Positions 2,167 through 59,687 of a stretch of 64,000 nt of DNA are shown piece by piece. Source of the stretch: Candidatus Peribacteraceae bacterium (lineage in GTDB: Bacteria > Patescibacteriota > Gracilibacteria > Peribacterales > Peribacteraceae); NCBI GenBank assembly GCA_028699155.1, contig JAQVVD010000004.1, positions 3,924-67,923 on the forward strand. The letters are read 5' to 3'. Under the pieces are notes generated by a model. That model saw only the letters and a list, made by a program, of their open reading frames with translations. It had not been told where the DNA came from and did not search any database. A program made the position numbers and the translations under genes. The first letter of the stretch is position 1. Every line of letters begins with the position of its first letter.

Positions 2167-2269
2167 ATTGACGACGGCCCTGCCATTGTCATGCCGAAGT
2201 AAGCTCTGATCATATGCTGACACTTAAACTCTAGCCGGCCTTAAGTGCGGCGCATGCAAGCAGAGCAAA

Positions 2270-2303
2270 GAGCGAGACCCCTGTGGTCTCGCTCCATTTT
2301 TTT
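2270..2303 (+). terminator. rho-independent terminator after the peptide gene
   Basis: Perfect 10-bp stem GAGCGAGACC / GGTCTCGCTC with a 5-nt loop, followed by CA and seven T (2297-2303). Confidence 0.7.
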
Positions 2304-2400
2304 ACGCTACAATATCCCCGCTGTGCAACTCACTCTCTTCAGCAAACAACGGCGTGAAAGTGTTTTAGAAACACTGGCGATCTGCAAGCGTCTTGTAGGG

Positions 2401-4146: not shown

Positions 4147-4173
4147 CTTTCCACATTCGAAAACGCGTCACAT

Positions 4174-4695: not shown

Positions 4696-4775
4696 CCAGA
4701 TAAGCCAAAATGCATCTTTAATCGGAACCTAGTCGAGCCGATTAGCGATGTATAAGCTCCTCTCAATGAGAGAAT

Positions 4776-4866
4776 GCTATACTCCCACCAATGACAACTT
4801 TCGCCACCCTGCATCCTGTTCTTCAGGCACTCATCGCCACGATAGTTACATGGGGTGTTACGGCGC
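4776..4866 (+). repeat. right copy of the 91-bp imperfect direct repeat (functional zupT promoter and first 25 codons)
   Basis: See 447-537. The three mismatches in the 70-bp core are all synonymous third-position changes (CCC/CCT, CTA/CTT, CAA/CAG). Confidence 0.9.
4778..4783 (+). promoter_or_regulatory. putative -10 box TATACT, 7 nt upstream of the zupT ATG (leaderless-type)
   Basis: TGCTATACT followed by 7 nt and then ATG at 4791, with no Shine-Dalgarno. The same arrangement occurs at 449-454 with GTG at 462. Confidence 0.35.
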
Positions 4867-5600: not shown

Positions 5601-5631
5601 CCCTCTGTCTCTGCTGGTCTATGATTCGCCC

Positions 5632-6867
5632 TCACTCGTACCGCAGCGCATCGATCGGCTTGAGTTTGGCGGCCTGCCACGCCGGGAGAATGCCGAAGAA
5701 CACGCCGATCCCGATGGAGAAACCGAGCGCGAGCAGAATGGAATCGAAGGAAATGATGGCGCGCGTTTCCGCGTAGTTCGTCACGATCCAGGCTCCCAGG
5801 TAACTGATGAGCACTCCGATCGCGCCTCCCAGAACGCTCAGGACCATGGACTCCACCAGGAACTGCTGGAGAATGTCACGCTTCTTGGCGCCGATCGCCT
5901 TGCGGATGCCGATCTCGCGCGTGCGCTCCATCACAGAGACAAGCATGATATTCATCACGCCTATGCCTCCGACGATCAGGGAAATCGCCGCGATTCCCCC
6001 AAGGAGGAACGTGAATGTCTGGGTCACTTCATTCAGGGTTTCGACTGTATCGGACTGGTTTGCGATGTTGAAATCCTGATTGGCAATATTTGTGATGCGG
6101 TGCTGATTGCGCACAACGACCTCGATGAGAGCGGCCGTTTGGCTCATCTGATCCTGCCTCTCCACGGAAATATTGATGGAACTGAGCTTGTCCGTGCCCT
6201 GCACGCGCTGCTGCATCGTCGTGAGCGGAATCAGCGCGACTTCATTCTGGTTCGTGAATCCCTGCTGTCCTTTCTCCTCCATGATACCGATCACCGTGAA
6301 GATGTGCTGCTCGATGCGCATGTCCCTGCCAATGGGGCTCTCCGCCCCAAAGAGCGTCTCTGCCGCCTCCTGCCCCAGTACAACGACCTTCTCCCGTTTA
6401 TCGATGTGCCCCTGCGTGATGAATGACCCGAATTCCACGTTGAAATTCTTCACAACCGGATAGTCCGGCGTGACGCCGATGACACTCACCTGCATGTTCT
6501 TGTTCCCGACAATCGCCTGCATAGTTCCGGAAAGCTCTGGCGAAATTCCTATCAAGCCGCTCACGTTCTTCTCAATCGCGCTGACATCGTCCGACGAGAG
6601 CGTACTCGTGGAACTCCCCCCTCCCGCGCGGCGGAAGAGCGACCGCACATTCGTCTGCGAGGGGCTGCCGGGGCTGACCGTCAGGAGGTTCGTCCCCAAA
6701 CTCTCGATGCGTTCCGTGATCTGCTGCTGGGACCCCTGCCCTATGCCGACCATGAGTACCACGGATGCAACGCCGATGATCACGCCCAGCATCGTCAGTC
6801 CCGCGCGCAATTTGTTGCTGCGAATCGCATCGAGGGCGCTGCGGAGATTTTCGAGGAAATACAGCAT
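5632..6867 (-). CDS. ABC transporter permease, MacB/FtsX family
   Basis: 411 aa with an N-terminal TM, a large periplasmic MacB_PCD-like region and a C-terminal FtsX-type 3-TM bundle (ERTREIGIRKAIGA). It starts 4 nt after the stop of the ATPase gene. Confidence 0.9.
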   Translation of the reverse strand: MLYFLENLRSALDAIRSNKLRAGLTMLGVIIGVASVVLMVGIGQGSQQQITERIESLGTNLLTVSPGSPSQTNVRSLFRRAGGGSSTSTLSSDDVSAIEKNVSGLIGISPELSGTMQAIVGNKNMQVSVIGVTPDYPVVKNFNVEFGSFITQGHIDKREKVVVLGQEAAETLFGAESPIGRDMRIEQHIFTVIGIMEEKGQQGFTNQNEVALIPLTTMQQRVQGTDKLSSINISVERQDQMSQTAALIEVVVRNQHRITNIANQDFNIANQSDTVETLNEVTQTFTFLLGGIAAISLIVGGIGVMNIMLVSVMERTREIGIRKAIGAKKRDILQQFLVESMVLSVLGGAIGVLISYLGAWIVTNYAETRAIISFDSILLALGFSIGIGVFFGILPAWQAAKLKPIDALRYE

Positions 6868-6870
6868 AGA

Positions 6871-7563
6871 TCACTGCGTATGAATGAGGCCGTCCAGTAT
6901 GTGAATCGTTCGTCGCGCGTGCTCTGCCACATGCGGCTCATGCGTGACCATCACAATCGTCACGCCATTCGCACTCAGCTCATCCAGGAGCCCCATGATC
7001 TCTTCTCCAGTTTTGGAATCAAGCGCGCCTGTCGGCTCGTCTGCGAGAATGATCGCCGGATTGGTCACCAGTGCTCTCGCGATCGCTATGCGCTGCTTCT
7101 GCCCTCCGGAAAGCTCGTTCGGAAGATGGTGCATGCGATCCGCCAGTCCCACCGCCTTCAGAGCACTCTCCGCGTGCTCGATAGCCTCATGCCGATGCAC
7201 GCCCTGATAGAGCAGCGGCTGCATCACCTGTCGCAGCGCATTCATGCGCGGCAGCAGGTTGAACGCCTGGAATACGAACCCGATGCGCCTGCTGCGCACT
7301 TCCGCCTGCTCTCTCTCGGAGAGGTGGCTGACTTTCCTGCCCTCCAGGGTGTACGTCCCCGTGCTGGGCGTATCGAGCAGCCCGATGATATTCATGAGCG
7401 TCGATTTTCCGGAGCCGGACGGTCCCATGATCGCGATGAACTCGCCATCCTGAATGTGCAGGGAAACTCCTTTGAGCACCGTGAGTTCCTGGGTGCCCAG
7501 GACGTACGTCTTGGTGATGTCATGCAATTGGATCATGAGTCTGATGCGGGAATGCAGGATCAC
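6871..7563 (-). CDS. ABC transporter ATP-binding protein (MacB/LolD type)
   Basis: Walker A GPSGSGKST, signature LSGGQKQRIAIARAL, Walker B ILADEPTGALD. GTG at 7563 overlaps the adaptor stop as GTGA. An alternative ATG start at 7536 gives MIQLHDITKTY. Confidence 0.9.
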   Translation of the reverse strand: MILHSRIRLMIQLHDITKTYVLGTQELTVLKGVSLHIQDGEFIAIMGPSGSGKSTLMNIIGLLDTPSTGTYTLEGRKVSHLSEREQAEVRSRRIGFVFQAFNLLPRMNALRQVMQPLLYQGVHRHEAIEHAESALKAVGLADRMHHLPNELSGGQKQRIAIARALVTNPAIILADEPTGALDSKTGEEIMGLLDELSANGVTIVMVTHEPHVAEHARRTIHILDGLIHTQ

Positions 7564-13013: not shown

Positions 13014-13169
13014 AGCATGACGGCTGAAAAAGCCGTATCGTTGCAAGCACTTTGCGACACCCGTTCGTAGCCCCGCCTACGCGGGGCGGAGAAGGGTGAT
13101 CTGCCTCGCAAAAACCACCAAGGAAAGATGGCGGGAAATGCACCGTTCGTATAGGATACTTGTCTACAC

Positions 13170-13562
13170 ATGAAGCACCTCTTCCTCTCCATCTTCGTAG
13201 CATCGCTCTTCTCCGGCAATTTCTGCCCGATGCGCGCCGTACACGTGCAAGCTGCAGATATGCCGGTTGTAATGCATCAGCAGATGGCACATGCGGCAAA
13301 CCACGAACCCTGCCAGCCGGAACCGGCGCAAACGTTCCAGAACGCTCCCTGCACGGGGAATGCGTGTTTCCTTGGCGAGTACGTTGCAGACCAAAGATCT
13401 TCCTCCCTCGCGAAGCAAACAGCGGAGCCCGCTGCATTTTCGGGCATCATCCCAGGCATGCTGCCAGCGGATACTCCGATGGATTTCCCTGTGATCGTTA
13501 CGCCGCCAGGGGGATCACTCCCCTCTTTGAGACACATCGCTACCATAGTGTTGCGCACGTAA
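13170..13562 (+). CDS. small secreted His/Met/Cys-containing protein (possible periplasmic copper-binding protein)
   Basis: Signal-peptide-like N-terminus MKHLFLSIFVASLFSG, followed by MPVVMHQQMAHAANHEPC. It sits immediately upstream of the copper genes. No family recognised. Confidence 0.45.
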   Translation: MKHLFLSIFVASLFSGNFCPMRAVHVQAADMPVVMHQQMAHAANHEPCQPEPAQTFQNAPCTGNACFLGEYVADQRSSSLAKQTAEPAAFSGIIPGMLPADTPMDFPVIVTPPGGSLPSLRHIATIVLRT

Positions 13563-13635
13563 AAAGAAGGTACGAACCATCTGCAGAGCCACGCAAGCGC
13601 GGTTCTCTGTTTGTATCTCTCTTCTTCTCTTCACT

Positions 13636-15183
13636 ATGGAACACACGTCAAAACACCTTGAACTCATTGAGCTCCGCATTGCGGGCATGCACTGCAGGAG
13701 CTGCGAAATCATCCTGGAACGCGCATTGAAAGGCATTCCAGGCGTGGCAAAATCGCACGTCAATTCTGCGAAAGGGACGGCAAAAATCTATGCAGATCCG
13801 ACCCAACTCCCTTCGATGGCAACGATTTCCGCTGCCATAGAGGAAGCCGGGTACAGCGTGGTAGCGCAGGACGCATCCGCAGGAACAGTACGCGGGAACC
13901 ACGCAGACACTTCAGAAATTTCCGGCACAAGGAAGTGGCTGGAAATCGGCGCAGCGCTCATCATCATTCTCGCGCTCTACCAGGTGCTCAAAGGGCTTGG
14001 CATCACGGATTTTGCCTCGTCTGTCAGCGGGACTGCGACGCTGGGCGGCGTCTTCCTGATCGGCATCGTCGCGGGTTTGAGCAGCTGCCTTGCCGTGACC
14101 GGCGGCCTCCTGCTCAGCGTGACCGGCAAATGGAACGAGTTGCACCCGGACCAGGACGGCTGGACCAAGTTCAAGCCGCTCCTCGCATTCAACATCGGGC
14201 GGCTCGCTTCGTACTTCGTTCTTGGCGGCGTTATCGGCTTGATCGGAACTTCCATCTCCTTAAGTCCGCAAGCCGGCGGATACCTGAGCATCGCTGTGGC
14301 ACTCGTGATGCTCTCGCTCGCCCTCTCGATGCTCAGAATCATTCCGAAAGGCAGCTGCCCCATACGGCCTCCCAAGCGGCTCGCTCACTGGATCGCCGAT
14401 ATGTCCGAGCATCCGCACCCGGCCGCACCGTTCTTTCTGGGGGGACTGACATTCTTCCTCCCGTGCGGCTTTACGCAATCATTGCAATTGGTCGCACTCG
14501 CATCAGGGAGCTTCACCATGGGTGCGCTGATCATGTTCTCCTTCGCTCTCGGCACACTCCCAGCGCTCCTGGGTTTAAGTGTGATCTCCGCAACGGCGAA
14601 AGGGACATACTCGCGCGTCTTCCTGCGCTTCGTGGGAACACTGGTGCTGCTGCTCTCGCTCTGGAACCTGCGCAGCGGCCTCACGCTCGTGGGTGTGGAT
14701 GCCGCAAGCCTGCTCTCTTTCGGGGAGAGCGCAACGGATGCCGCATACGCGAAGAATGCGGATCCCAATGTCACTATTGCAGCGAACGGGGACCAGATCA
14801 TCAACATGCGCGTAGACGGGTACGAATATACGCCGGATACCTTCACGGTAGAAGCGGGAAGAACTACATGGGTCTATGCCGATGCAGACCGCATTACCGG
14901 CTGCACGAGCATTCTCACCGTCCCAAAATTCGGGTTGCAGGCACGTCTCCAGCAGGGAGAACAGGTGCGCCTTGGCCCCATCAGGAACCCGACTTCCGAC
15001 TTCTTCATCACCTGTTCCATGGGAATGGTGAGCGCGAGGGTACGGGTCATACAACCGGGCGTACCCGGCAGTCAGGCTGTGAATCTTCCGCTTGTGGAAC
15101 AGGCGTCGGCGCAGGAAGATCCGTTTGATGCACCACGCCCGTCCTGCGGCAGCAGTGGCGGATGCGGTTGCGGAGGGGCATAA
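13636..15183 (+). CDS. heavy-metal-associated (HMA) domain / TauE-SafE (UreH-like) membrane domain / cupredoxin-like domain fusion protein
   Basis: N-terminal GMHCRSC metal-binding motif, about 7 TM helices in the middle, and a C-terminal beta-rich region with ITCSMGM typical of cupredoxin_1-like domains. The tail is Cys-rich ([12 protein letters not shown]). Confidence 0.8.
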
Positions 15184-19131: not shown

Positions 19132-19138
19132 ATAATTC

Positions 19139-20155
19139 GTGAACATAGAAAAACCACAACTAGATGGAGGGAAGGAACAAGCAGATAAGACACCGGCAAG
19201 CCGAGAAGGAGCACTGCCCCCTCCAGATACGGCACAACAGGTGGAGCAACTGCTCACAGAAAAATTAAGTACGCGTCTTACGCGAGAACTTGCAGGAATT
19301 GCTACGGTTCGGATTCTTGAAGAGCCCAAGAAGGAGGGCGAACGACCGCGGGAGATTCTGCAAATTGATATTACAAATCGCGAGAAATGGCAGTCCCCTG
19401 AATGCCAGCGCAAGTTCCTGCCGCTCATCGGTGTGATTCTCCAGCAAACGTTCTTCCCGGAGAAAGATCCAAATGATTGGACTCCCGACGGATTAGTCCG
19501 AGAATACCACGACTGTGATCCGGATTTCACAGACCGCATTATCCTGCTTACGAATGGACAACGAGTCACGGGGTTTTCGATGGTAAAAAAATGCAACAAT
19601 ACACAAACGGACAATATTCCTGTTGTTGCTCTACAACTTAGATCTGTCGAAGCAGGTAAACGGTACAAAGGCACAGGAGCGCACCTCATTCATTTAATAC
19701 GACAAACATATCCTGATGCAATAATTATTTCCGCTACACATACGCCAGCAGCTGTTACTGCAACAAAACGCCATGCCGATGCGAGTGGAGAGCCTTTCTA
19801 TTTCTGTGGGTATCGCAATGGCGACTCGTCATTAATCAATACCCCAGCAGAGGAACATACCATCACTGAAGCGGAGGAAAGCTATCGGGATATGCTGCGT
19901 GTCGACTACGGCGGTTTGGACGAAGAAGAGCAGAAAGGAATTCCGCCACACTGTGTAAACTATGGAGAAGGTTCAATCTCTTGGACAGATGATCATCAGT
20001 GGAAACCGGGGGATACCAGCCCTATTGCAGCGACATTCAATCAACTGCGAAAATCAGTCTTTGACCAAGGCAGACAACAGGAAGGTATTTATGGAATGGC
20101 TACCGTACTACCAAAAAATTTCCTTACGAAGAAAGTTCCACCACAGGCGGAATAG
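19139..20155 (+). CDS. hypothetical protein (possible GNAT-like fold in the central part)
   Basis: 338 aa with a GTG start. The central segment VALQLRSVEAGKRYKGTGAHLIHLI resembles the R-x-x-G-x-G/A CoA-binding motif. Its 3' end overlaps the convergent decarboxylase gene by 32 bp. Confidence 0.5.
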   Translation: MNIEKPQLDGGKEQADKTPASREGALPPPDTAQQVEQLLTEKLSTRLTRELAGIATVRILEEPKKEGERPREILQIDITNREKWQSPECQRKFLPLIGVILQQTFFPEKDPNDWTPDGLVREYHDCDPDFTDRIILLTNGQRVTGFSMVKKCNNTQTDNIPVVALQLRSVEAGKRYKGTGAHLIHLIRQTYPDAIIISATHTPAAVTATKRHADASGEPFYFCGYRNGDSSLINTPAEEHTITEAEESYRDMLRVDYGGLDEEEQKGIPPHCVNYGEGSISWTDDHQWKPGDTSPIAATFNQLRKSVFDQGRQQEGIYGMATVLPKNFLTKKVPPQAE

Positions 20156-26350: not shown

Positions 26351-28741
26351 TCAGGAAGCGATTTGTTCCACTCGTGTGCCGCGAACCCATGCCGGCGTCT
26401 CACGCTTGTACCATTCCACGGCACTCCAGATGATGCTCTCCAGGAGTTCTCCGTAATCATACCCTGCGAGCTTTGCTGCCGAAGGCAAAAAGTCCGTGGG
26501 TTCGATTCCCGGATTCGGGTTGAGTTCCAGTACGAACGGATTCCCTTCCCGGTCTATGCGCATCTCGATCTCCGCGTAATCTCTGCAATCGAAAATCGAG
26601 AACATATCGAGTGCGATCTCGCTCACCAACTTATCGAGTTTCGGCGGGATTTTTGCAGGCTTCTCCACGCGAATCGACTTGAGGATATCCTGGTACTTTT
26701 CCGTCATGAGTTCCCATGTGTAAATATGCCAATGCCCTTCGGGCATTTTATCGAATACGGAACGTATCAGCGGGAGCACTTCCGCCTCATCCCCGTTCCC
26801 GAGCACGCACGCATCTATCTCATCGCCTTCAATATATTCTTCGATCAGAGCCGGCTGCCGCATATCCTGGACAATCGTCCTGAGCTGTTTCTTCAGTTCG
26901 CGCTCATTTGTGACCACCGAGCAGAGACCGATGCCATAGTAGTTATCCGCAAGCGCGGGTTTGACCATCAGCGGGAATTCAAGATTGGGATTAATCTTCT
27001 CTCCGATCTCTTCAATATAATCCCACTCGGGAGTAGGGATATTATGATAATCGAGCATCTTCTTCACATCGATTTTGTCCAACGCAGCGGCAATGGTCGC
27101 AGAACTGGATCCACTGAAAGGCAGGTGCAGCATTTCGAGCAATGCCGCGATATGCACGCCGAGGAACGGCGCATTGGGATCTGCTTCGCAGAGATTCAGC
27201 ACGAAATTGAAGTTCGCATCCTGTATCTTGCGAATGGGTATCGGCATCTGGCTCACGTCGATGAGATCAGCATGGTATCCGCGTTCCATCAGCATACTGC
27301 GCACGCTCTCCCCTGCGGGAGAATTTGAGAGAATGCCGATGTACATGCTGCGCATATCCTTCAAATTTGAAGATCGCAATTTGGCAAGTCGCGATGCTTC
27401 GATGATTTGGCTGCGGACAACCGATGCGGTGTCGAGTGCATGTTCGCGGCTTGTTTTGCCAAGGGAAGAATCCCTGTGGAATTTCGTCACATTGAATTCT
27501 ATTCTTCCCATAATCCGCTCAAGAGCAGCTTGCGCCTGCTGGTGCGTCTTCCCGCTTGCAACAACCCACCCGGCATTCTCGTATCCCTCAGGAGGCACGA
27601 GAACGGCATCACCCACCTTTTTGGTGAGGGATAAATGGATAAGACTGGGCGATTTCAAAATATCTTTCGGATAGGAAATGCCGCTCACAATCCCGGAATA
27701 CGGAGGAATGAAATACTCGCATGCGACGCATTCCCTTCGCGTCTTCTTCTCTCGCTGCACATACACCCCGCATGCAACCTGCAACCCAATGTCCACCAGG
27801 TTTTCATCTTGTGAATGTTTCACGTACAAATAGATGTCATCTCCTCCCATACGTGAGCCGACTTCGACAATCTTGGGACCCTGCGGAGTCGTCTTGATCT
27901 CAATATGCGCCAGGCTATCCGCCACGCCCAACGCTATCATCGCCGACTCGGCGAGCTTGATTACCGCTTTCTCCGTCTCCTCATCCAAACGCGCGGGGGC
28001 ACAATCCCCTCTCTCCACGAAATATGGCAATTTCATAGGATATTTTTCATTGATCCCGATTGTATGAGGAATACCGTACTGCGCGTAACACTCTACGCTG
28101 ACCTCCATTCCCTCCATGTATTCTTCGTACAGAAACATACCCTCGTTGTACTTGAAGATCGGGTTGAACTGCTCAGTGCAGTTGAGCAGCAGATACCGCA
28201 GTGTCACTTCTGCTTCCTTGACGTTGTTCACGAGTACCACAAACTCGCTGTCCGCACCCCATGCCGGCTTCATGACAGCGGGGAACCCGATGCGCTCAAT
28301 CGCCTTCTGCAAATCGCGCTTACTGCGCACCATGTGAAACATGGGAATACCGAGACCCGTCTCCTGCAAACGCTTACGCATGGCGAATTTGTTACGCGTT
28401 ACCACCGCTGTTTTGTAGGTGTTACCTGGCAGATTGAGTTTTTCACAAATGCGCCCGAGGAGAGGCACATCGTCCTCCCAGAATGTGATCGCCCCATCAA
28501 ACTTCACGTGGGGATTGTGACGGAGAAACGCTTCAATTTTCTTGATGCACTCCTCATGATTGAACGTATCTGCTTCGATGAAATAATCGACAATGTGCTG
28601 CTTGCGCTGGTCTGGAGCTTTGTCGAGCAGAACAATTGTCATGCCGAGTTTCCTGGCTCTTTCGATCGTGAATCGCTTCTTCTTGCCTCCGGAATTTACG
28701 AACAGCACTGTTTTTCCTGCAAGGCCACTCTTCGTGTTCAT
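26351..28741 (-). CDS. double ATP-grasp ligase (N-terminal L-amino-acid-ligase-like domain plus C-terminal D-Ala-D-Ala-ligase-like domain)
   Basis: 796 aa from ATG at 28741. The N half contains FPAVMKPAWGADSEFV...HIEIKTTPQGPKIVEVGSRMGG. The C half contains LEMLHLPFSGSSSATIAAALDKIDVKKML...PLMVKPALADNYYGI...YAEIEMRIDREGNPFVLELNPNPG. Confidence 0.8.
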   Translation of the reverse strand: MNTKSGLAGKTVLFVNSGGKKKRFTIERARKLGMTIVLLDKAPDQRKQHIVDYFIEADTFNHEECIKKIEAFLRHNPHVKFDGAITFWEDDVPLLGRICEKLNLPGNTYKTAVVTRNKFAMRKRLQETGLGIPMFHMVRSKRDLQKAIERIGFPAVMKPAWGADSEFVVLVNNVKEAEVTLRYLLLNCTEQFNPIFKYNEGMFLYEEYMEGMEVSVECYAQYGIPHTIGINEKYPMKLPYFVERGDCAPARLDEETEKAVIKLAESAMIALGVADSLAHIEIKTTPQGPKIVEVGSRMGGDDIYLYVKHSQDENLVDIGLQVACGVYVQREKKTRRECVACEYFIPPYSGIVSGISYPKDILKSPSLIHLSLTKKVGDAVLVPPEGYENAGWVVASGKTHQQAQAALERIMGRIEFNVTKFHRDSSLGKTSREHALDTASVVRSQIIEASRLAKLRSSNLKDMRSMYIGILSNSPAGESVRSMLMERGYHADLIDVSQMPIPIRKIQDANFNFVLNLCEADPNAPFLGVHIAALLEMLHLPFSGSSSATIAAALDKIDVKKMLDYHNIPTPEWDYIEEIGEKINPNLEFPLMVKPALADNYYGIGLCSVVTNERELKKQLRTIVQDMRQPALIEEYIEGDEIDACVLGNGDEAEVLPLIRSVFDKMPEGHWHIYTWELMTEKYQDILKSIRVEKPAKIPPKLDKLVSEIALDMFSIFDCRDYAEIEMRIDREGNPFVLELNPNPGIEPTDFLPSAAKLAGYDYGELLESIIWSAVEWYKRETPAWVRGTRVEQIAS

Positions 28742-28844
28742 GGGGAAACGTGCAATGGGAAAATAGAAGTAAATGTGCGCAGAGCGTACGCCTGCTATAC
28801 CCAGACGCAAGAGGCATTCTCATGACGAATGACACTGATGCATA

Positions 28845-31703: not shown

Positions 31704-31780
31704 GCCTCCATAGCTCAATTGGATAGAGCGTCGGTCTTCGGAACCGAAGGTTGCAGGTTCGAACCCTGCTGGAGGCACCA
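31704..31780 (+). tRNA. tRNA-Arg (anticodon TCG), CCA encoded
   Basis: Cloverleaf read by hand: acceptor GCCTCCA/TGGAGGC, D arm GCTC-AATTGGATA-GAGC, anticodon arm TCGGT-CTTCGGA-ACCGA (TCG at positions 34-36, G37), variable AGGTT, T arm GCAGG-TTCGAAC-CCTGC, discriminator A, then CCA. Confidence 0.9.
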
Positions 31781-41944: not shown

Positions 41945-42180
41945 GTCTGAAAGGAGTAAAAGAAGGCAAAAGACGCAGAGGATTGAAAAGAATCCTTATG
42001 ATACCATTTTGCCCGGTAAAGAACAGTTGTCCTTTGCTTCTCCTGACTCTTCTTCCTTCTCCCCCTTGTCAGACATCGCCGCACCGAATGCGGAGACGGC
42101 AATTTTTGCGAATGTGCAAGCGTACATTCTCCTGGCGCTTCCTACGGCGGATAGAACTGTTTTTTCTGCGGAATAGAGGG

Positions 42181-42186
42181 TATACT
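42181..42186 (+). promoter_or_regulatory. putative -10 box TATACT, 11 nt upstream of ATG at 42198
   Basis: The sequence is GGGTATACTCTGCCATCTGGATG, with no SD. Confidence 0.3.
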
Positions 42187-42197
42187 CTGCCATCTGG

Positions 42198-44951
42198 ATG
42201 CAGTGGAATGAATTTCAATCATACATCCGGCACTTTGCTTATCAGGATCAGGAACGCCTGAAGGAAGCATTCTACTTTGGAGAAAAGGCACACGAAGGAC
42301 AGGTGCGATTCTCAGGGGAACCGTACTTTAACCACCCGATTGCAGTCGCAAAAACACTCGCAGATATGGGGGCAGATGCGGATACGCTGATCGCAGCGCT
42401 CCTGCACGACACAGTGGAAGATACGTCGCTCACCCTGAAGAAAATTGATGAAAAATTCGACGGAAAAGTGGCGTCACTCATTGACGGGGTAACCAAATTA
42501 TACGCAGAAGATCTGCAGGACCATAAAGAAATCCGGACGCTTGATGAGAAGATAGAAACACTCCGGAAGATGTTCACCTTCCTGGAGAAGGACGTGCGCA
42601 TCATGGTCATCAAACTCGCAGACAGGCTGCACAATATGCAGACAATCGAATTTTTCCCGAAGGAGAAACAGCAGACGTACGCGCAAGACACGCTGGATAT
42701 CTACGTGAAAATTGCCGAGCGTCTCAGTATGCTGGACATGCGTGAAGAGCTGGAATACCTGTGCCTCGCGGTGTTGGAACCCGCACTGCTCAAATCGCTG
42801 GTAGAACTGCGCAGTACGCATGAGCAGCAAGCGCAGCAAGTGATCCGTACCATGCAAGAGAAAATTGGCGGTTTCGTGCGCAATCCGCCTGTACGCATCG
42901 AGTTCGCACAGAAACCCTGGCATAAACTCCGCCTGCAGTTGGAGGCAGGAGGAGGACCGGTAACGGGAATATCCGATCTGGGGATGTTCTTCATCTGCAA
43001 AGACAACAACGCCTGTTACCAGGCACTCGGCATCCTCCACCAGCTGTGGCCGCGTGAACAGCTCTCGTTCCAGGATTTTATCAATGCCCCCATGGTGAAC
43101 GGCTACCAGGGATTGCATACCACCGTCATTCTTGAGAATGGCATGCGCATTCGCTGCAAGATCCGTTCTGAGGAAATGCAAACGTACGCACATCGCGGGA
43201 TTACGACAAAATGTTTCGACAGCAAAGCAACCGGTCTCCTGGAATATTTGCCTTGGACCAAGCACATCTCCACCCTCTCACAAGACACTACGGACAAAAG
43301 CCAGGAATTCTGGGAGAGCCTGCAGAGCGACATCTTGGGGGAATCGATCATCGTTCACAGCAGTGACAGCCAAACTATTATGCTCCCGGAGGGCGCGACT
43401 GTTTTGGATGGAGCTTTCTACTGCTACGGCAATAACGCACTCTCGCTCAAAAGCATCATGATGGACGGAAAGGACGTGCCGCTCTACACGCCGCTGCAGA
43501 ATGGCGCATCTCTCGCTATCGAAGTCAGCAGGAAGAAAACCGTCAACCACGATTGGCTACGATACGCGAACACCGGATTGGCAACCGCCAATATCCGAAC
43601 CGCACTCTCCTCCCGATCTGCCGCAAAGAAAATACAATTGGGACGACAACTGCTGCAAGACGTCTTCTGCAAGAAGCATAAGGGATTCATCGAAGAATTT
43701 GACGCAAAGAGTCTCGTCAATGGAACCGCCTCTCTGGGATACAAGACGCTCGAGGATGCATACATTGCCATTGCAGACGGCCACCTGGATCCTACGTCCC
43801 TCTTCGAAGTGCTCTTCCAACAGAAGAAGACGCGCGCTGTTACGCCTCAGTACGAACGCTGTGTCGTGGATTTCTCCGTCAATCTGGCTGATGCGGCATC
43901 TGTTGATGGAGTTATGAGTACATGGAAGAGGCACAATGCCGCGATGAAGAAGATGCGATTCAAACCTCTCGCGAATGCACGAAGATTCGTACACTGGTCT
44001 CTGCTGCTCACCCCTCCCGAGCAACAAGAGATCATTTCGGAACTGCAAGCCGCAGGAGCGACGAACATATCGCTGCAAAAAGCATATGAGCAGCGCAAGT
44101 TCCTGTACCTACTCCTCGGTACGACGATGCTGTGGGGGCTCGACCCTGTTGTCGCACATCGTCTCCTTGCAACTGTGATTACTCCATTGGACCTCACACT
44201 CCTGCGTTTTCTTGCGTTCTTTGCATCAACGGCGTGCTTCTACTTCATACAGTCCCGCCTGGCACAACAGAAATTCAAACCGCTCACCTTGCGGGATCGC
44301 TGGCTCTTCCTCTCCGCCATATCTCTCTTTGCTACAGCGCTCGGCACGTACTTCGCATTGTGGTACATCTCTCCTACGCAGTACATCCTCTTCATTCTGG
44401 CGGGCACAACCGTTCCGTCGGTGCTCGATGCTCTGTTCCATGGCACGAAGAAAAAAATGCCCGTCGCCGCATTCGCGGCACTGTCGCTCACGATCCTCGC
44501 CATGATGGCCATGCAGGGTACATCGCTCGTTGGCGTCGCATCTGCGGTCCTGGCATCCTTGGGCTTCACGCTCTACTCACTGTTCAACAAGTACTATCAA
44601 CTGCACACCGCCCGCGTGCAGGCACGGTACGCCGCATTCCTCTTCTGGCTCGCCTCCATCCTATTGCCCCTCTCACTTCTGCTCATTCCGTGGACACATA
44701 TCTCAACGCTTTCTCTGCCCGTCATTCTCGGCAGCGTCGCCTTCCTCCTCCTTTTCACCACCGTACCGTACGGCCTTTTCTACGCGCTCCTCCTTCAGAA
44801 AGATACATACAAGCTCGGTGAAGTACTCCTCCTCACGGCTGTACCGACCGTCGTTGCCGAATCGGTTCTCTCGCATTCGCTCTATCCGCTCATCACGCTC
44901 CCCATTCTCCTCGGGGTTTTCGCGCAGCAATGGCGGTCGGCAAAAGAATAG
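42198..44951 (+). CDS. long RelA/SpoT homolog (HD hydrolase, synthetase-like, TGS, ACT-like) fused to a C-terminal EamA/DMT-type 10-TM domain
   Basis: HD motifs HPIAVA...LLHDTVEDT...ADRLHNM, a synthetase-fold segment (CYQALGILHQLWP...NGYQGLHTTV), TGS (IMLPEGATVLDGAFY), and an ACT-like region. From aa 633 (nt 44094) onward there are about 10 hydrophobic helices with EamA-like repeats. Confidence 0.85.
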   Translation: MQWNEFQSYIRHFAYQDQERLKEAFYFGEKAHEGQVRFSGEPYFNHPIAVAKTLADMGADADTLIAALLHDTVEDTSLTLKKIDEKFDGKVASLIDGVTKLYAEDLQDHKEIRTLDEKIETLRKMFTFLEKDVRIMVIKLADRLHNMQTIEFFPKEKQQTYAQDTLDIYVKIAERLSMLDMREELEYLCLAVLEPALLKSLVELRSTHEQQAQQVIRTMQEKIGGFVRNPPVRIEFAQKPWHKLRLQLEAGGGPVTGISDLGMFFICKDNNACYQALGILHQLWPREQLSFQDFINAPMVNGYQGLHTTVILENGMRIRCKIRSEEMQTYAHRGITTKCFDSKATGLLEYLPWTKHISTLSQDTTDKSQEFWESLQSDILGESIIVHSSDSQTIMLPEGATVLDGAFYCYGNNALSLKSIMMDGKDVPLYTPLQNGASLAIEVSRKKTVNHDWLRYANTGLATANIRTALSSRSAAKKIQLGRQLLQDVFCKKHKGFIEEFDAKSLVNGTASLGYKTLEDAYIAIADGHLDPTSLFEVLFQQKKTRAVTPQYERCVVDFSVNLADAASVDGVMSTWKRHNAAMKKMRFKPLANARRFVHWSLLLTPPEQQEIISELQAAGATNISLQKAYEQRKFLYLLLGTTMLWGLDPVVAHRLLATVITPLDLTLLRFLAFFASTACFYFIQSRLAQQKFKPLTLRDRWLFLSAISLFATALGTYFALWYISPTQYILFILAGTTVPSVLDALFHGTKKKMPVAAFAALSLTILAMMAMQGTSLVGVASAVLASLGFTLYSLFNKYYQLHTARVQARYAAFLFWLASILLPLSLLLIPWTHISTLSLPVILGSVAFLLLFTTVPYGLFYALLLQKDTYKLGEVLLLTAVPTVVAESVLSHSLYPLITLPILLGVFAQQWRSAKE

Positions 44952-48263: not shown

Positions 48264-51200
48264 GTGTTCGATCCGGTAGATCCCAAACAGGCATTGCCAA
48301 AAATGGAGCTCGGCATCCTCCAGTACTGGAAGGAGGAAGATATCTTCCAGCGCAGCATCAAGCAGCGGTCTTCCGTACAGGGTCGCGCCTGGCACGATGC
48401 GAAATCAGCCAGTCCGGAGGATACGTTCTCCTTCTACGACGGTCCGCCGTTCGCCACGGGGCTCCCACACTACGGGCATCTGCTGGCCGGAACGATCAAG
48501 GATGTGATCCCGCGCTACCAGACGATGTGCGGCAAAGTGGTGCAGCGTCGGTTCGGCTGGGATTGCCACGGCCTGCCCGTGGAGAACCTGATTGAGAAGG
48601 AACACGGCATAGAGGGGCGTAAGCAGATTGAGGAGATGGGCGTGGGCAAATTCAACGAACTCTGCTGCAGCTCCGTACAACGCTTCACGAAAGAGTGGCA
48701 GGAAGTTGTGGAGCGTATGGGGCGCTGGGTGGATATGAACTGGGACTACCGCACCATGGACCCTGACTACATGGAAAGCATCTGGTGGGTCTTCAAGCAG
48801 CTCTACGATAAGGGATTGGTCTACGAAGGGCACAAGCCCATGCACATCTGCCCCCGCTGCGTGACTCCCCTCTCCAACTTCGAGGTGACGCAGGGCTACA
48901 AGGAAATCACCGATACGTCGGTGACGGTGAAATTTGAATTAGTAGATGAACCGGGCACATTCGTACTGGCATGGACGACAACGCCATGGACACTGCCGGG
49001 GAACCTGTTTCTTGCTGTCGGTCCAAAGATCCAGTACGCCAAAGTTGCATTTGAGGGGAACCACTACATCCTTGCAAAGTCAGCTGTTGAAAAAATATTC
49101 AAAGGGAAGGAATACAAAGTGCAAGGAAACATGGCAGCAAATACGCTCGCCGGAAAACACTTTAAGCCCTTGTTCCCGTACTTCGTTGAGACCTACAAGA
49201 AAGAGAAAAATACATTCCGAATCGTTACTGCAGATTTCGTTGCAACGGATGAAGGCACCGGCATCGTTCACATTGCTCCGGGATTCGGCGAGGATGACTT
49301 TCGCATCGGCGAACGCGAGAAGGTGGATGTCCTGCAGCACGTCACGATGGATGGCAAATTCGTGCCGGAGGTGACGGACTTTGCGGGAATGGATGTGAAG
49401 CCGATTGATGATCCGGGCAAGACCGACCGCAAGGTGGTCGAGTGGCTGGAGAAACACGGGCTCCTCTTTTCCAAAGAGCCCTACCGCCACAGCTATCCGC
49501 ACTGTTGGCGGTGTGACAGCCCGCTGCTCAACTACGCCACCAGCTCATGGTTCGTGAGTATCGAGAAGATCAAGGAGAAGCTCCTGAGCAACAATGCCAA
49601 GACGGAGTGGATCCCGGCGCATCTGCGCGACGGCCGATTCGGCAAGTGGCTGGAGGGTGCGCGCGACTGGGCGATCAGCCGCAACCGCTACTGGGGTACG
49701 CCGCTGCCAATCTGGCGCAATGAAGAAACCGGAGACGTGGAAGTGCTTGGGAGCCGCGATGATTTAATGGCACACGCGCCGGAGCGGTTCACCAAGGTGA
49801 CAATCGTTCGCCACGGCGAGAGCGAGGGAAACTTAACCCCTATCTACCAGGCGATTGAGCCCGGAACCAACCTGACAAAGCAGGGGAAGGAGCAGGCGAA
49901 GGCAACGGCGAAACTGCTCGCAGGCAGAGATCAGAAGTCAAAAATCAGAAGTCAGGTTCCTGTGGACATCATCTACTGCTCCCCGCTCGCACGCACGCAG
50001 CAGACTGCGCAGACCATCGCGAAGGAAACGGGAGCGGAGATCATTGTGGATGACCGCCTGCGCGAGGTGAACTTCGGGGAGTATGAGGGCAAGACCGTGG
50101 ACTTTAACGACCTCGCATTCGTGAAAGCGCGTCGAGCCCATAAGCTGCAGGAAAAGAGCCCGGAGAGCATCTACCATTTTCCGGGCATGGAAACGTGGAA
50201 TGACGTGCAGAAACGCCTCTCGTCTTTCATGGTGGAAATGCTCCCCCGGCACCGCGGCAAGCATGTGGTTGTCGTGACGCACGCGGACGTGGTACAGAAT
50301 GCCAAGCACTTCTTCACCAGGGAGGACCCGCTCAAGATCTCGCACCAGCCGTACCCGAGCTACGCGGAACCGCGCGTGTTCTTCTGGGATCATGAACGCA
50401 ATGCCCAGATGGACCTGCACAAGGATACGGTGGATGGAATCCTTTGGAATGGGAGCGGAAGTACAAATGGTGTGGAGGCACTGTTTGTCCGCCATGGCGA
50501 AACCGACTGGAACAAGGAGAAGAAAATCCAGGGAAAGCAGGATACTTTGCTGAATAAGACAGGAAGGGAACAAGCTAGGAAACTTGCAAAGACACTCGCG
50601 AAAGAACACTTCGATGCCATCATTTCATCCGACCTTAAACGAGCTGCAGAAACTGCCGATATTCTCTCCGAAGAATTGGGTATGCCGGTTGATGCGCGTT
50701 GGGATGAACTCCGTGAACGAAGTTTCGGCGATTGGGAGGGTAAAAAACGCGACGAAATTGATGCGACCATCCCCGGACAGTTCGCGGTGCAAGATATGCA
50801 TTTCCCGAATGGGGAAACAATCAATGCATTCTTTTCGCGCATCCGCTTAGCACAACAGAAACTGCTCAAGGCGTATGCCGGTAAACGCGTACTCGTTGTC
50901 GCACATGGCGGCGTACTCAAAGCCATTGAGGTACTCAACGGATTGAAGTCCCTGGAAAAAGTACAGACAAGCTTCACAGAAAATACTGCATCTGTTCATG
51001 TCTCACTGCATCCCCCGTTCAAGCGCATCCCGGAAGTCCTGGATTGCTGGTTTGAGTCGGGTGCGATGCCCTACGCGCAATCGCACTTCCCATTCGACCA
51101 TGCGGGTGAAGAGCTGCCGCCCGGTTTCCCGGCGGACTTCATCGCGGAAGGAGTCGACCAGACCCGCGGATGGTTCTACACCCTCATGGTGCTCTCCTCC

Positions 51201-52628
51201 GCGCTGTTCAATGAACCTGCATTCAGGCACTGCGTCGTAAATGGCATCGTGCTGGCAGAGGACGGTAAGAAGATGAGCAAGCGCCTCAAAAACTACCCGG
51301 AACCCACGGAGATCGTGGAGAAGTACGGCGCAGATGCGATTCGGTTCACGCTGATGAGCTCACCCGCGGTGCGCGGAGAAGACCTGCGCATGAGCGAGAA
51401 ACTGGTCGCGGAGAGCCTCCGCAACGTCCTGCTGCCCCTGTGGAACACCTACAGCTTCTTCGTGACGTACGCGAATGCGGCAACATTCGAGCCGGTTGCT
51501 ACGCGCAAGGCATCCGCACATCCGCTGGACCGGTGGATCCTCGCGGAAGTGCAGGATCTGGTGAACCGGATGACGGAGCAGCTCGACCGGTACGAACTCT
51601 CCGCGACGTGCGCCGAGCTGCACGACACGATCGATGCGCTTACCAACTGGTACGTGCGCCTCTCCCGCCGCCGCTTTGCGGGGAAGACCGCACTGGAAGA
51701 AGGTGAGAGCGCAAGCGCGATCCAGCAGATTGACGGAGCGGAAGAGGACCGCCTGGATGCGCTGCGTACGCTGTACGATGTCCTCATCAGCCTCACGCAG
51801 CTGCTCGCACCGTTCTGCCCGTTCATCACGGATGCGATCTATCTGAACCTCGTGCCGGAGGAGCACGTTTCCGTGCACCTCACGGACTGGCCGGAGGCGA
51901 GAGCGCTCAGGAAGGAAGAGCTTGCGCTTCTTCAGAAGACGCGGCTCCTCAGGACGATCGTCTCGCTCGGTCTCTCCATCCGCAGCGAGCAGAAGATCAA
52001 GGCGCGCCAGCCGCTCGCATCCGCCACCGTCGCCGTGCCTCCGGCACTGGCGAAAAATGCGGCGCTCTCCGATGAGGATGTGCAGCTGCTCAGGAACGAA
52101 CTGAATGTGAAACACCTGACGTTCACGGAAGACCCCGGTTCCCTCGCCACCGCAGTGGCGCTGGTGGACGCGCGCAAAGCCGGCCCGCGGCTGGGCGCGC
52201 GGGTGCAGGAAGTGATCAAAGCCGGAAAGGCAGGAGAGTTCACACAGCAGGAAGACGGCTCCGTCCTCGTCCTTGATGAAGTGTTCTCCCCCGATGAAGT
52301 ACAGATCGTGTATCGCGGCGAGGAAGGCAGAAATGCCGCTGCGAACCACGGCATCGTCGTGAGCATAGAGACAACGCTCACCGAGGACCTGAGACTGGAA
52401 GGGCTCGCGCGCGATGTGATTCGCGCGGTACAGCGCCTGCGCAAGGAAGCCGGACTGGAATTCACCGACACGATCACGCTGGCAATCGATGGCGCAGAGG
52501 AGCTGATGCAGACGCACGGCGATCTTATTGCCCATGAAACGCGCGCCCGATTGGGAGAGAATTCCGGCGGGAAGCACACTGTGGATTTAGAAGGACAGGC
52601 AGTGACAGTGCGGTTTGAGAAAAAATAG
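48264..52628 (+). CDS. ileS: isoleucine--tRNA ligase (type 2) with two inserted histidine-phosphatase (PGAM-like) domains
   Basis: 1454 aa with a GTG start. HIGH motif (PHYGHLLAG), editing CP1 (TTPWTLPGN, GTGIVHIAPGFGEDD), KMSKR at aa 1002-1006, and a type-2 C-terminus. aa 511-705 and 737-915 carry RHG...H phosphatase motifs. Confidence 0.9.
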   Translation: MFDPVDPKQALPKMELGILQYWKEEDIFQRSIKQRSSVQGRAWHDAKSASPEDTFSFYDGPPFATGLPHYGHLLAGTIKDVIPRYQTMCGKVVQRRFGWDCHGLPVENLIEKEHGIEGRKQIEEMGVGKFNELCCSSVQRFTKEWQEVVERMGRWVDMNWDYRTMDPDYMESIWWVFKQLYDKGLVYEGHKPMHICPRCVTPLSNFEVTQGYKEITDTSVTVKFELVDEPGTFVLAWTTTPWTLPGNLFLAVGPKIQYAKVAFEGNHYILAKSAVEKIFKGKEYKVQGNMAANTLAGKHFKPLFPYFVETYKKEKNTFRIVTADFVATDEGTGIVHIAPGFGEDDFRIGEREKVDVLQHVTMDGKFVPEVTDFAGMDVKPIDDPGKTDRKVVEWLEKHGLLFSKEPYRHSYPHCWRCDSPLLNYATSSWFVSIEKIKEKLLSNNAKTEWIPAHLRDGRFGKWLEGARDWAISRNRYWGTPLPIWRNEETGDVEVLGSRDDLMAHAPERFTKVTIVRHGESEGNLTPIYQAIEPGTNLTKQGKEQAKATAKLLAGRDQKSKIRSQVPVDIIYCSPLARTQQTAQTIAKETGAEIIVDDRLREVNFGEYEGKTVDFNDLAFVKARRAHKLQEKSPESIYHFPGMETWNDVQKRLSSFMVEMLPRHRGKHVVVVTHADVVQNAKHFFTREDPLKISHQPYPSYAEPRVFFWDHERNAQMDLHKDTVDGILWNGSGSTNGVEALFVRHGETDWNKEKKIQGKQDTLLNKTGREQARKLAKTLAKEHFDAIISSDLKRAAETADILSEELGMPVDARWDELRERSFGDWEGKKRDEIDATIPGQFAVQDMHFPNGETINAFFSRIRLAQQKLLKAYAGKRVLVVAHGGVLKAIEVLNGLKSLEKVQTSFTENTASVHVSLHPPFKRIPEVLDCWFESGAMPYAQSHFPFDHAGEELPPGFPADFIAEGVDQTRGWFYTLMVLSSALFNEPAFRHCVVNGIVLAEDGKKMSKRLKNYPEPTEIVEKYGADAIRFTLMSSPAVRGEDLRMSEKLVAESLRNVLLPLWNTYSFFVTYANAATFEPVATRKASAHPLDRWILAEVQDLVNRMTEQLDRYELSATCAELHDTIDALTNWYVRLSRRRFAGKTALEEGESASAIQQIDGAEEDRLDALRTLYDVLISLTQLLAPFCPFITDAIYLNLVPEEHVSVHLTDWPEARALRKEELALLQKTRLLRTIVSLGLSIRSEQKIKARQPLASATVAVPPALAKNAALSDEDVQLLRNELNVKHLTFTEDPGSLATAVALVDARKAGPRLGARVQEVIKAGKAGEFTQQEDGSVLVLDEVFSPDEVQIVYRGEEGRNAAANHGIVVSIETTLTEDLRLEGLARDVIRAVQRLRKEAGLEFTDTITLAIDGAEELMQTHGDLIAHETRARLGENSGGKHTVDLEGQAVTVRFEKK

Positions 52629-52652: not shown

Positions 52653-52700
52653 CAATTTAACAATTTAACAATTTCGCAATGTAGCAATGTCACAATGCAC
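52653..52700 (+). repeat. six CAAT motifs at exact 8-bp spacing (aaCAATtt x3, then cgCAATgt, agCAATgt, caCAATgc), the last containing the ATG at 52695
   Basis: Read directly from the sequence. CAAT starts at 52653, 52661, 52669, 52677, 52685 and 52693. Confidence 0.85.
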
Positions 52701-53120
52701 CATGTTTCCAGTAGAGTACCCACGATGTCTTCCGACTCCCGCACGCCCCTCTGGCTCGTCATTCTCCTCAGGTTCCTCCTGAACGTGGCGCTGGTATGGC
52801 TGCTCACGGTGAAATTCAGCCAGTACTTCGTGCTCACGGGGGACTTCGGCTCCATCATCGTCATCGGATCGCTGCTGACACTGCTCAACCTCTTCGTGCG
52901 GCCGTTCCTGAATGCCGTCACGCTGCCGCTAAGGCTGTTTGCCACACTGCTCGCGCTCGTGATCGTGCACGGCGCTTTCCTCTTCATCACGCTGCGCATC
53001 ACGGGAATGATGGATCCGGAAGTGCTCACGTTCTCCATCGGCGGAGGCATCGCCGGCTGGATCGCAGTTGCCTTGGTGCTCGGCACAGGCAACTGGATCA
53101 TGAAACTAGCAGTCAATTAG
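52695..53120 (+). CDS. small 4-TM membrane protein (phage holin family IV / DUF360-like)
   Basis: 141 aa with a hydrophobic layout and segments (FVRPFLNAVTLPLRLFATLLALVIV) resembling YvlD/DUF360 proteins. An alternative start lies at 52725. Confidence 0.55.
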   Translation: MHHVSSRVPTMSSDSRTPLWLVILLRFLLNVALVWLLTVKFSQYFVLTGDFGSIIVIGSLLTLLNLFVRPFLNAVTLPLRLFATLLALVIVHGAFLFITLRITGMMDPEVLTFSIGGGIAGWIAVALVLGTGNWIMKLAVN

Positions 53121-59280: not shown

Positions 59281-59687
59281 TGGTGGAGATGCCGGGAATT
59301 GAACCCGGGTCCAACGTGTCGTGCACCGTGCCAGTACTGATATGCCCTTCTCAATTCTCTCCTGCCCTAAGAGAAGGGCAAAGATGGGCGGGAGAGGGTT
59401 GATGCTGTATACGGAGCACTGTCGCATCAGGCAGTGCTACGTCTCGCTGATGACGTCTCTTCCGCTTACGCGAGAATGGGCGGAGAGACGTGTTCCCGGT
59501 AATGGGGAACTTATGCAAGGACAGGGACGAGCTGCGGAAGGCGAACCTTACCAGCAATCTCGCGTGCCTTTGCAAGGATACCGTTTTCGGCATCTATAGT
59601 GTGCAGCATGTGGGTAACGGGAACCGCTGCCATCCCGATCAGAAGCAAACAATGACGAGTGTCACGCTGTCGAAGCCTGTCATCCCC
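59281..59687 (-). ncRNA. ssrA: tmRNA (ssrA)
   Basis: 5' GGGGATGACAGGCTTCGAC and 3' CCGGGTTCAATTCCCGGCATCTCCACCA form a tRNA-Ala-like acceptor with a G3:U pair. There is an internal tag ORF GCC...TAA at 59591-59511. Confidence 0.85.

Follow-up and report, generated by a model that had tools for sequence, protein, structure and literature searches.

Two histidine-phosphatase modules embedded in the CP3 subdomain of a type-2 isoleucyl-tRNA synthetase from Peribacteria

Results

A canonical type-2 synthetase body

Here we report the analysis of a 64,000-nucleotide stretch of contig JAQVVD010000004.1 from a Candidatus Peribacteraceae bacterium (hereafter the window), in which the isoleucyl-tRNA synthetase (IleRS) gene, ileS, encodes a protein with two histidine-phosphatase modules, HP1 and HP2, inserted within its connective polypeptide CP3 (Table 1). 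The gene is one uninterrupted open reading frame (ORF) whose frame is intact in the ORF listing of the window, and the N-terminus that it encodes, MFDPVDPKQ, agrees with the family consensus. A preceding sequence-only reading had called the product a type-2 IleRS, that is, an enzyme of the eukaryote-like, mupirocin-insensitive type, and this identification is upheld: the whole protein scores 842.5 bits against the NCBIfam ileS equivalog TIGR00392 (cutoff 621.4), the Pfam domains Anticodon_1 and DUF5915 make up the C-terminal organisation of type 2, and the predicted fold matches IleRS2 structures. An AlphaFold2 model of amino acids (aa) 1-1200 has a predicted local distance difference test score (pLDDT) of 88.9 and a predicted template-modelling score (pTM) of 0.86, and Foldseek gives target-normalised TM-scores of 0.84 to 6LDK and 1ILE and of 0.68 to 8C8V. 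The MupA/MupB mupirocin-resistance models (NF000257 and NF000258) were rejected, the protein reaching 643 and 639 bits where 1900 are required.

Conservation was assessed in 120 homologues drawn from a search over 5.8 billion proteins. The WGTPLP and CWFESG motifs of IleRS are essentially invariant, and in the editing domain CP1 so, or nearly so, are WTTTPWT (aa 237-243) and GTGIVH (aa 331-336), with W237, T238-T240, W242 and G331 invariant and H336 kept in at least 90%. The limits given for CP1 are approximate, being offset from the yeast numbering (yeast limits per PMC7955072). The Pfam tRNA-synt_1 match covers aa 47-504, breaks off, and restarts further on. The body is that of a canonical type-2 synthetase, with synthetic site, editing domain and tRNA-binding domains intact, and normal charging of tRNA-Ile can be presumed. 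The 64-kb window contains neither a further class I synthetase nor a further histidine phosphatase.

Two separate insertions in CP3

The stretch 49794-51008, which corresponds exactly to aa 511-915, contains both modules and, between them, a short segment, MDLHKDTVDGILW. When both inserts are left out, the remaining IleRS aligns collinearly and nearly without gaps to the human (9W01), Candida (6LDK), yeast (7D5C) and Thermus (1ILE) enzymes (E 2e-69 to 1e-55), and MDLHKDTVDGILW falls opposite the DLHRESVD segment of solved type-2 or eukaryote-type IleRS. The segment is thus a genuine island of synthetase, as the sequence-only reading had proposed, and because it aligns to the host the two modules must have separate insertion points. 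Island residues D717, L718, H719 and D724 are kept in all 120 homologues. By residue count, HP1 is inserted directly ahead of the equivalent of yeast D499-L500-H501-R502, and HP2 takes the place of the next beta-hairpin; both modules sit in surface loops of CP3, flanking the conserved DLHK helix.

The modules had initially been assigned to the catalytic core, a placement that the alignment and the published structures correct: they lie in the peripheral, plastic CP3, outside the catalytic core proper. CP3 comprises residues 473-534 in Candida IleRS (PMC7191050) and residues 459-526 in yeast IleRS (PMC7955072), and its topology varies among the Candida, Thermus and Staphylococcus enzymes (PMC7191050). 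It is directly preceded by the CP2-3 linker, ARDWNVSRNRYWG, which lines the pocket for tRNA A76 and reveromycin (PMC7955072), and in human IARS1 it is the docking surface for LARS1. The two yeast IleRS structure papers describe no role for the DLHR island.

Table 1. Features of ileS and its immediate neighbourhood (coordinates in the window)
Feature	Coordinates	Strand	Remarks
ileS, type-2 isoleucyl-tRNA synthetase	48264..52628	+	1454 aa; GTG start; stop codon counted in
HIGH signature motif HYGH (aa 69-72)	48468..48479	+	Kept in 119/119 homologues
CP1 editing domain (~aa 210-412)	48891..49499	+	WTTTPWT and GTGIVH motifs
Expanded CP3 subdomain (aa 472-926)	49677..51041	+	455 aa vs 68 aa in yeast; alignment to 6ldk and 7d5c sequences
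HP1, histidine-phosphatase module 1 (aa 511-705)	49794..50378	+	Predicted nucleophile H517 (nt 49812-49814), general acid E601, second His H673
Host CP3 island MDLHKDTVDGILW (aa 716-728), between HP1 and HP2	50409..50447	+	
HP2, histidine-phosphatase module 2 (aa 737-915)	50472..51008	+	Predicted nucleophile H744 (nt 50493-50495), general acid E818, second His H881
KMSKS signature KMSKR (aa 1003-1007)	51270..51284	+	K1003, M1004, S1005, K1006 in 120/120; R1007 in 101/120
Anticodon-binding domain (aa 1089-1252)	51528..52019	+	Pfam Anticodon_1, E 7e-26
Type-2 C-terminal domain DUF5915 (aa 1275-1453)	52086..52622	+	Pfam, E 4.5e-24
RelA/SpoT-family gene (HD + synthetase)	42177..44948	+	924 aa; context only
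Small membrane protein with four transmembrane segments, directly downstream of ileS	52695..53120	+	Context only

Identity of the phosphatase modules

The claim that the inserts are two in-frame histidine-phosphatase modules survived profile and fold searches alike. The Pfam family His_Phos_1 (PF00300) matches IleRS in two stretches (E 7e-84; 280.7 bits, cutoff 21.7), NCBIfam scans concur, and an AlphaFold2 model of aa 470-940 (pLDDT 91.8, pTM 0.89) contains the alpha/beta phosphoglycerate-mutase-like fold in the modules. With this model Foldseek retrieved GpgP, PhoE, PspA and the 2,3-bisphosphoglycerate-dependent phosphoglycerate mutases (dPGMs) at E ~1e-13, with TM-scores of 0.74-0.80 to PhoE, PspA and GpgP. 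A pTM this high for a multi-module chain implies a predicted arrangement in which the modules are fixed relative to each other and to the body. The catalytic residues, described as intact in the sequence-only reading, are invariant or nearly so: R516, H517, N523, R577, E601 and H673 of HP1 are present in 120 of 120 homologues, and R743, H744, N750, R793 and E818 of HP2 in 118 of 118, with H881 in 117 of these.

The two modules share just 34% identity. HP1, which bears a family-specific T-H-A-D-P motif following its second His, has the metal-independent phosphoserine phosphatase PspA as its closest solved relative (4IJ5, E 7.5e-15), while HP2 is closest to PhoE (1EBB, E 4e-21), glucosyl-3-phosphoglycerate phosphatase and CobC; the nearest free-standing relatives of the modules carry the names PhoE or histidine phosphatase. 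More specific names did not hold. Against the dPGM model (TIGR01258, cutoff 81.7 bits) HP1 scores 33.7 and HP2 65.2 bits, only the two-module sum of 84.9 passing; CobC alpha-ribazole phosphatase (TIGR03162, cutoff 162.9) gives 88.3 and 130.7 bits, and PspA (NF045917, cutoff 350) 82.7 and 87.1 bits. Whole-protein matches to CobC and pgm_1 rise above cutoff because the two module scores add up, and since no single module reaches the curated NCBIfam cutoff for dPGM, CobC or PspA, the Joint Genome Institute (JGI) name “bisphosphoglycerate-dependent phosphoglycerate mutase” is unsupported. Judged from their profiles and predicted folds, the modules resemble phosphatases of the PhoE/PspA/GpgP/CobC type and not true phosphoglycerate mutases.

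Three other origins or roles for the inserts were considered and set aside. They are not inteins, in agreement with the sequence-only reading, no Hint or intein family being among the Pfam matches at E<=0.01 and the inserts being complete phosphatase folds. A generic basic tRNA-binding appendage is unsupported, as the modules are not basic (median isoelectric point ~6.5, akin to that of free-standing relatives). A single insertion of a ready-made di-domain phosphatase was likewise rejected: free-standing tandem di-His_Phos proteins of ~410 aa are common, but P0214, a free di-domain protein, lacks a DLH motif at the position of the island, and some distant IleRSs (37-45% identity) have HP1 alone.

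Distribution and conservation

At least 120 clusters share the identical domain set at 59-76% identity to the window protein. Where named, they come from Candidatus Peregrinibacteria, Peribacteria or Peribacter riflensis, some of them on contigs of more than 1 Mb; the modules are present in all eight Peribacteria species-representative loci, and closed genomes of Ca. Peribacter riflensis, as well as the closed genome CP013064, carry them too. Inserts are absent from the IleRS of one Peregrinibacteria genome (L059) and one Gracilibacteria genome (L046), from those of Saccharimonadales and Paceibacterota, and from every type-2 IleRS examined outside the candidate phyla radiation. In a crude neighbour-joining tree with unreliable deep nodes, the phosphatase-bearing IleRSs formed a single clade in 0 of 100 bootstraps.

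Pairwise identity averages 67-74% in the synthetase core, 62% in HP1 and 44% in HP2. HP1 is fixed and co-evolving with its host under a constraint nearly equal to that on the core. Between the window protein and its nearest relative (P0002, locus L083), third-codon positions are saturated, with a GC content at these positions (GC3) of 0.75 against 0.38, yet the cores are 85% identical, which points to strong purifying selection and thereby rules out that the gene is a decaying copy.

Turnover of the HP2 slot

The HP2 slot behaves very differently from HP1. In the comparison with P0002, identity is 85% in the core and 79% in HP1 but 43% in HP2; along the alignment it drops from ~0.84 to 0.12-0.5 over ~aa 725-910 and is back up at aa 911, so that the breakpoints are sharp and coincide with the module boundaries. 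In the 50 pairs of hosts whose cores are at least 80% identical, the HP2 identities are bimodally distributed, with 23 pairs below 50% and 16 at 70% or more. Two HP2 types coexist even within one tight clade, where P0013 and P0039 differ from P0012, P0023 and P0030 (70-80% identity within types, ~44% between them) and the HP2 grouping conflicts with the similarities of the cores. The 121 modules found in the HP2 slot, in hosts that share 60% identity or more, divide into 48 clusters at 50% identity, and their median best match is 60% to one another against 44% to free-standing phosphatases. This pattern, as read from the sequences, indicates discrete replacement or the sorting of paralogues rather than uniform fast drift.

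Copy number varies as well. Two modules are present in 115 of the 120 homologues, three modules in three, and HP1 only in two. The extra module of the three-module forms is HP2-like and orthologous among the three, and the HP1-only pair adjoins the clade of the window protein in the neighbour-joining tree, a position that suggests secondary loss of HP2. The HP2 slot is thus accessory: it holds zero to two modules, which are lost, duplicated or replaced.

The GC3 of HP2 in the window (0.50, against 0.72-0.77 elsewhere in ileS) was downgraded as a sign of foreign origin, the editing domain dipping similarly and related loci being inconsistent. Recent capture of HP2 from free genes is unsupported: the two “free” proteins that cluster with embedded modules look like fusion fragments, because their matches run into flanking host segments.

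Embedded phosphatases in other synthetases

When the insert region was searched exhaustively against 1.84 billion representatives and the matches were scanned with Pfam and NCBIfam, embedded modules also turned up in more distant synthetases, a wider occurrence than the sequence-only reading had noted. Divergent IleRSs (37-45% identity) have one module at site 1 (P0127, P0272 and locus L050) or modules at both of the sites used in the window protein (P0132). Two others combine a site-1 module with an additional one at a third site (P0129, aa 869-1070; P0172, aa 434-598), the variable loop that opens the anticodon-binding domain, between FFVTYA... and ...LDRWI. In locus L050 (JACPMA01, a second Peregrinibacteria lineage), the ileS with a site-1 module, at ~2790-6578, aligns continuously in one frame from nt 2790, while the longest open frame begins only at nt 3360; the implication is either an in-frame stop near nt 3357 or an error in the sequencing there.

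One match, P0271, is a valyl-tRNA synthetase (ValRS; 847 bits, valS cutoff 704). When ValRS was searched in turn, 74 of 121 matches had modules, where named from Candidatus Gracilibacteria and some Peregrinibacteria. Such ValRSs are P0271, P0128 and proteins within the series P0281-P0383, and the genes at loci L081 (1001-4150) and L082 (1001-4405) encode others. The assemblies JACRHZ01 and JBAXIU01, in which phosphatase-bearing ValRS genes occur, differ from those that supplied ileS, and the “Peribacteria” ValRS P0386 is an outlier. The main insertion site in ValRS is again the CP3 loop, here between WGxxIP and DxWFxS, which measures 37-41 aa when free of inserts and here takes one to three modules; a second site lies upstream of WxISRQ, and totals run from one to four modules per protein. 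In single-module ValRSs, ~40% of the inserts are without the general-acid Glu and many also without the second His, while R-H...R is kept. Among the ValRS matches, P0343 and P0346 list PF04480 and P0320 lists PF00216, perhaps as additional insertions or through gene-call fusions.

As for the relationships among modules, the nearest relatives of IleRS HP1 are those at site 1 of distant IleRSs (48%), and HP2 is about equally near free-standing phosphatases (47%) and the extra HP2-like modules (48%). ValRS modules are 31-35% identical to IleRS modules against 37% to free-standing ones. Because the modules of IleRS and ValRS are not each other's closest relatives, several captures are suggested.

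Genomic neighbourhood

In each of the five Peribacteria loci whose flanks are long enough, a RelA/SpoT-homologue (RSH) gene is found upstream of ileS, at a distance of 0.5-3.3 kb; in the relatives it occupies 1310-3268 (L083), 5598-7532 (L084), 3321-6068 (L085) and 4495-6549 (L086). Its orientation varies, and long (~920 aa) and short (~650 aa) forms occur that are 27-30% identical. Further upstream, a NUDIX gene is found in the three called loci that reach that far, and the whole forms a collinear block: uvrA and NUDIX, then, after other genes, RSH, and, after others again, ileS followed by the small protein with four transmembrane segments. No RSH gene was found adjoining ~70 insert-free ileS loci or the two loci examined that encode phosphatase-bearing ValRS. 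We regard the RSH adjacency as a lead and not as evidence of coupling to charging. The small membrane protein matches Pfam Phage_holin_4_2 weakly and below cutoff (26.7 against 28.8 bits) and is not LspA by Pfam; with tblastn its gene is located behind ileS in five of seven related loci, and in L084-L086 the gene behind ileS gives the same Pfam match.

Elsewhere in the window, an 822-aa protein (26354-28819, minus strand) combines two ATP-grasp units, its N-terminal half being L-amino-acid-ligase-like and its C-terminal domain a D-Ala-D-Ala ligase. Three ORFs at 13100-15125 and 19136-20152 (plus strand) without a Pfam match have a markedly low GC3 of 0.41-0.49, the mean of the window being 0.66; they could be acquired genes or rapidly evolving ones. 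A tmRNA gene with the tag peptide AENGILAKAREIAGKVRLPQLVPVLA lies at 59281-59687 (minus strand) and a tRNA-Arg(TCG) gene at 31704-31780 (plus strand).

Discussion

We consider the protein to be the working IleRS of a member of the Peribacteria, which belong to the candidate phyla radiation, and at the same time a bifunctional synthetase-phosphatase whose phosphatase chemistry is independent of charging, a reading to which we give an even chance. Each module would hydrolyse a phosphomonoester via a phospho-histidine intermediate, with H517 as nucleophile and E601 as general acid in HP1 and with H744 and E818 in these roles in HP2. By analogy with PhoE, PspA, GpgP and CobC, the substrate would most likely be a small phosphorylated metabolite or nucleotide. 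The roles put forward in the sequence-only reading, hydrolysis of a phosphorylated inhibitor or of an Ap4A- or ppGpp-type nucleotide, are speculative. Free-standing single-domain relatives form dimers, and HP1 and HP2 probably form an intramolecular pseudo-dimer, predicted to be rigid both internally and against CP3. Fusion would tie the dosage and location of the phosphatase to those of the synthetase.

Several observations weigh against such independence, and they are the same ones that favour a function coupled to charging, in which the phosphatases act on something belonging to tRNA charging or its signalling and CP3 is a third catalytic site that regulates or protects aminoacylation. Candidate substrates would be a 3'-phosphorylated nucleotide or alarmone derivative, a tRNA end bearing phosphate, or the synthetase itself, phosphorylated on one of its residues. 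The strongest argument is that IleRS and ValRS are the sole multidomain hosts found for this phosphatase subfamily and that these two paralogous class Ia synthetases have recurrently captured modules, at the main site in the same CP3 loop, with modules that are not mutually closest; a recurrence of both host and site is more easily explained by a link to class Ia synthetase function than by chance hitch-hiking. The near-core constraint on HP1 and the high pTM of the 1200-aa model, with its predicted rigid docking, suggest tight integration, and the linker bordering CP3 lines the tRNA A76 pocket (PMC7955072). Furthermore, the RSH gene upstream of ileS in every Peribacteria locus with enough flank, its absence near insert-free ileS, and the NUDIX gene beyond it would fit a link to signalling. 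Nonetheless, the modules are not basic, their closest characterised relatives use small metabolites, the DLHR island that they flank has no role that we found described, and two loci of phosphatase-bearing ValRS have no RSH neighbour; the RSH gene is also part of a larger collinear block, from uvrA to the small membrane protein behind ileS, that may reflect conserved gene order only. On balance we find a coupled function possible but rather unlikely.

In a bolder and, in our judgement, somewhat less likely version, the CP3 phosphatases would be a third functional site of class Ia synthetases beside the synthetic and editing sites, coupled to charging. They could dephosphorylate a signalling nucleotide tied to the stringent response, a gene of the RelA/SpoT family being a conserved neighbour of ileS in Peribacteria, or could reverse an inhibitory phosphorylation of the synthetase or tRNA. 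The fast-swapped HP2 could then reflect antagonistic co-evolution, and the captures in IleRS and ValRS could be convergent solutions in bacteria with reduced genomes.

The degenerate ValRS modules that keep Arg-His...Arg hint that phosphate binding, rather than turnover, may be the common denominator, a further point against independent phosphatase chemistry. If so, the modules would be non-catalytic sensors of a phosphate ligand, or oligomerisation or docking domains, whose catalytic residues are kept for binding; they might serve synthetase dimerisation or link IleRS to other proteins. The use of CP3 as a protein-docking surface in human IARS1 agrees with this, as does the loss of general acid and second His from many ValRS modules with the pocket kept. 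In IleRS, however, the six catalytic positions are essentially invariant in both HP1 and HP2, even across non-orthologous HP2 replacements, and a general-acid Glu would be unnecessary for binding alone, which makes a non-catalytic role improbable to us.

The turnover of HP2 raises a further reading, an arms race in which the phosphatases, chiefly HP2, inactivate a phosphorylated inhibitor or undo the action of a toxin kinase, and in which the quick exchange of HP2 would reflect antagonistic co-evolution. The diversity of the slot in closely related hosts, the bimodal identities, the HP2 groups that disagree with host phylogeny, and the sharp module-boundary breakpoints with catalytic residues retained throughout are all consistent with it. 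The same turnover could equally be explained by differential loss of paralogous modules, since three-module forms exist, or by neutral recombination; moreover, none of the PADLOC defence profiles matched, no inhibitor or kinase is known for these organisms, and the conserved HP1 has no such dynamics. We therefore regard an arms race as a long shot. As for an artefact, whether through chimeric assembly, decay into a pseudogene or removal of the insertion before the protein becomes functional, we consider its likelihood negligible in view of the same architecture in at least 120 independent clusters and in closed genomes, the intact frame with all motifs kept, the absence of an intein domain from the Pfam matches and the confident structure prediction.

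The sequence-only reading had also taken the architecture to be undescribed. For the literature searched this stands: we found no description of the fusion, including in the Peribacteria genome paper and in a 2026 preprint on IleRS domain evolution. It does not stand for the databases, where the proteins are abundant and partly auto-annotated as bifunctional, some with JGI names; synthetases with extra domains are also already known, for example from the NCBIfam model of IleRS with a GNAT domain. Aminoacyl-tRNA synthetases are among the most conserved enzymes, and the CP1 editing domain is the classic catalytic insertion in the class Ia core. What is unusual here is the presence of complete second enzymes inside a connective polypeptide of an essential synthetase, their recurrence in a paralogue and the way in which HP2 turns over like a cassette. 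Another connective polypeptide, CP3, has thus received a second kind of hydrolase, which is maintained under strong selection across a whole bacterial class. If the phosphatases act independently of charging, as we prefer to think, they provide a clear case of natural domain insertion giving a bifunctional essential enzyme in reduced genomes, and they correct annotations that could wrongly credit these organisms with a phosphoglycerate mutase. If they are coupled to charging, they add a new regulatory or protective layer to it. Either way, CP3 emerges as a natural insertion-tolerant site that should be useful for synthetase engineering.

Comparison with known systems

The synthetase body is like that of the type-2 IleRSs of Priestia megaterium (8C8V), Thermus thermophilus (1ILE), Candida albicans (6LDK) and yeast (7D5C) in its HIGH and KMSKS motifs, CP1, CP2-3 linker, anticodon-binding domain and C-terminal domain. 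The difference lies in CP3, which measures ~62-68 aa in the fungal enzymes against 455 aa here, two phosphatase folds having been inserted. The CP3 of the window protein is also without the cysteines that form the zinc knuckle of the Thermus enzyme. A zinc-binding motif in the Thermus CP3 is documented (PMC7191050).

Taken singly, the modules have the same fold and the full catalytic set of PhoE (1EBB/1H2E), PspA (4IJ5), GpgP (4PZ9/6S2Q) and CobC. Those proteins are free-standing and ~200 aa long, whereas the modules described here are internal and each scores below the equivalog cutoffs. A curated parallel on the side of the synthetase is NF040702, an IleRS with an N-acetyltransferase domain and thus likewise an IleRS with an extra enzymatic domain; its extra domain is of the GNAT type and apparently differs in position, and the window protein is a non-member (273 bits against a cutoff of 1999). 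On the side of the phosphatase, the bifunctional RNase H/acid phosphatase NF005567 also joins a CobC-like phosphatase to a nucleic-acid enzyme, and the modules score 86-108 bits against its cutoff of 326. That protein, of the mycobacterial Rv2228c type, is an end-to-end fusion, in contrast to the IleRS modules, which are insertions inside the catalytic domain.

A parallel in site and domain family is ValRS with His_Phos_1, for which our literature searches found no publication; it shares the main CP3 loop and the variable copy number. The host differs, many of the ValRS modules are catalytically degenerate, and they are no nearer to the IleRS modules than to free-standing phosphatases.

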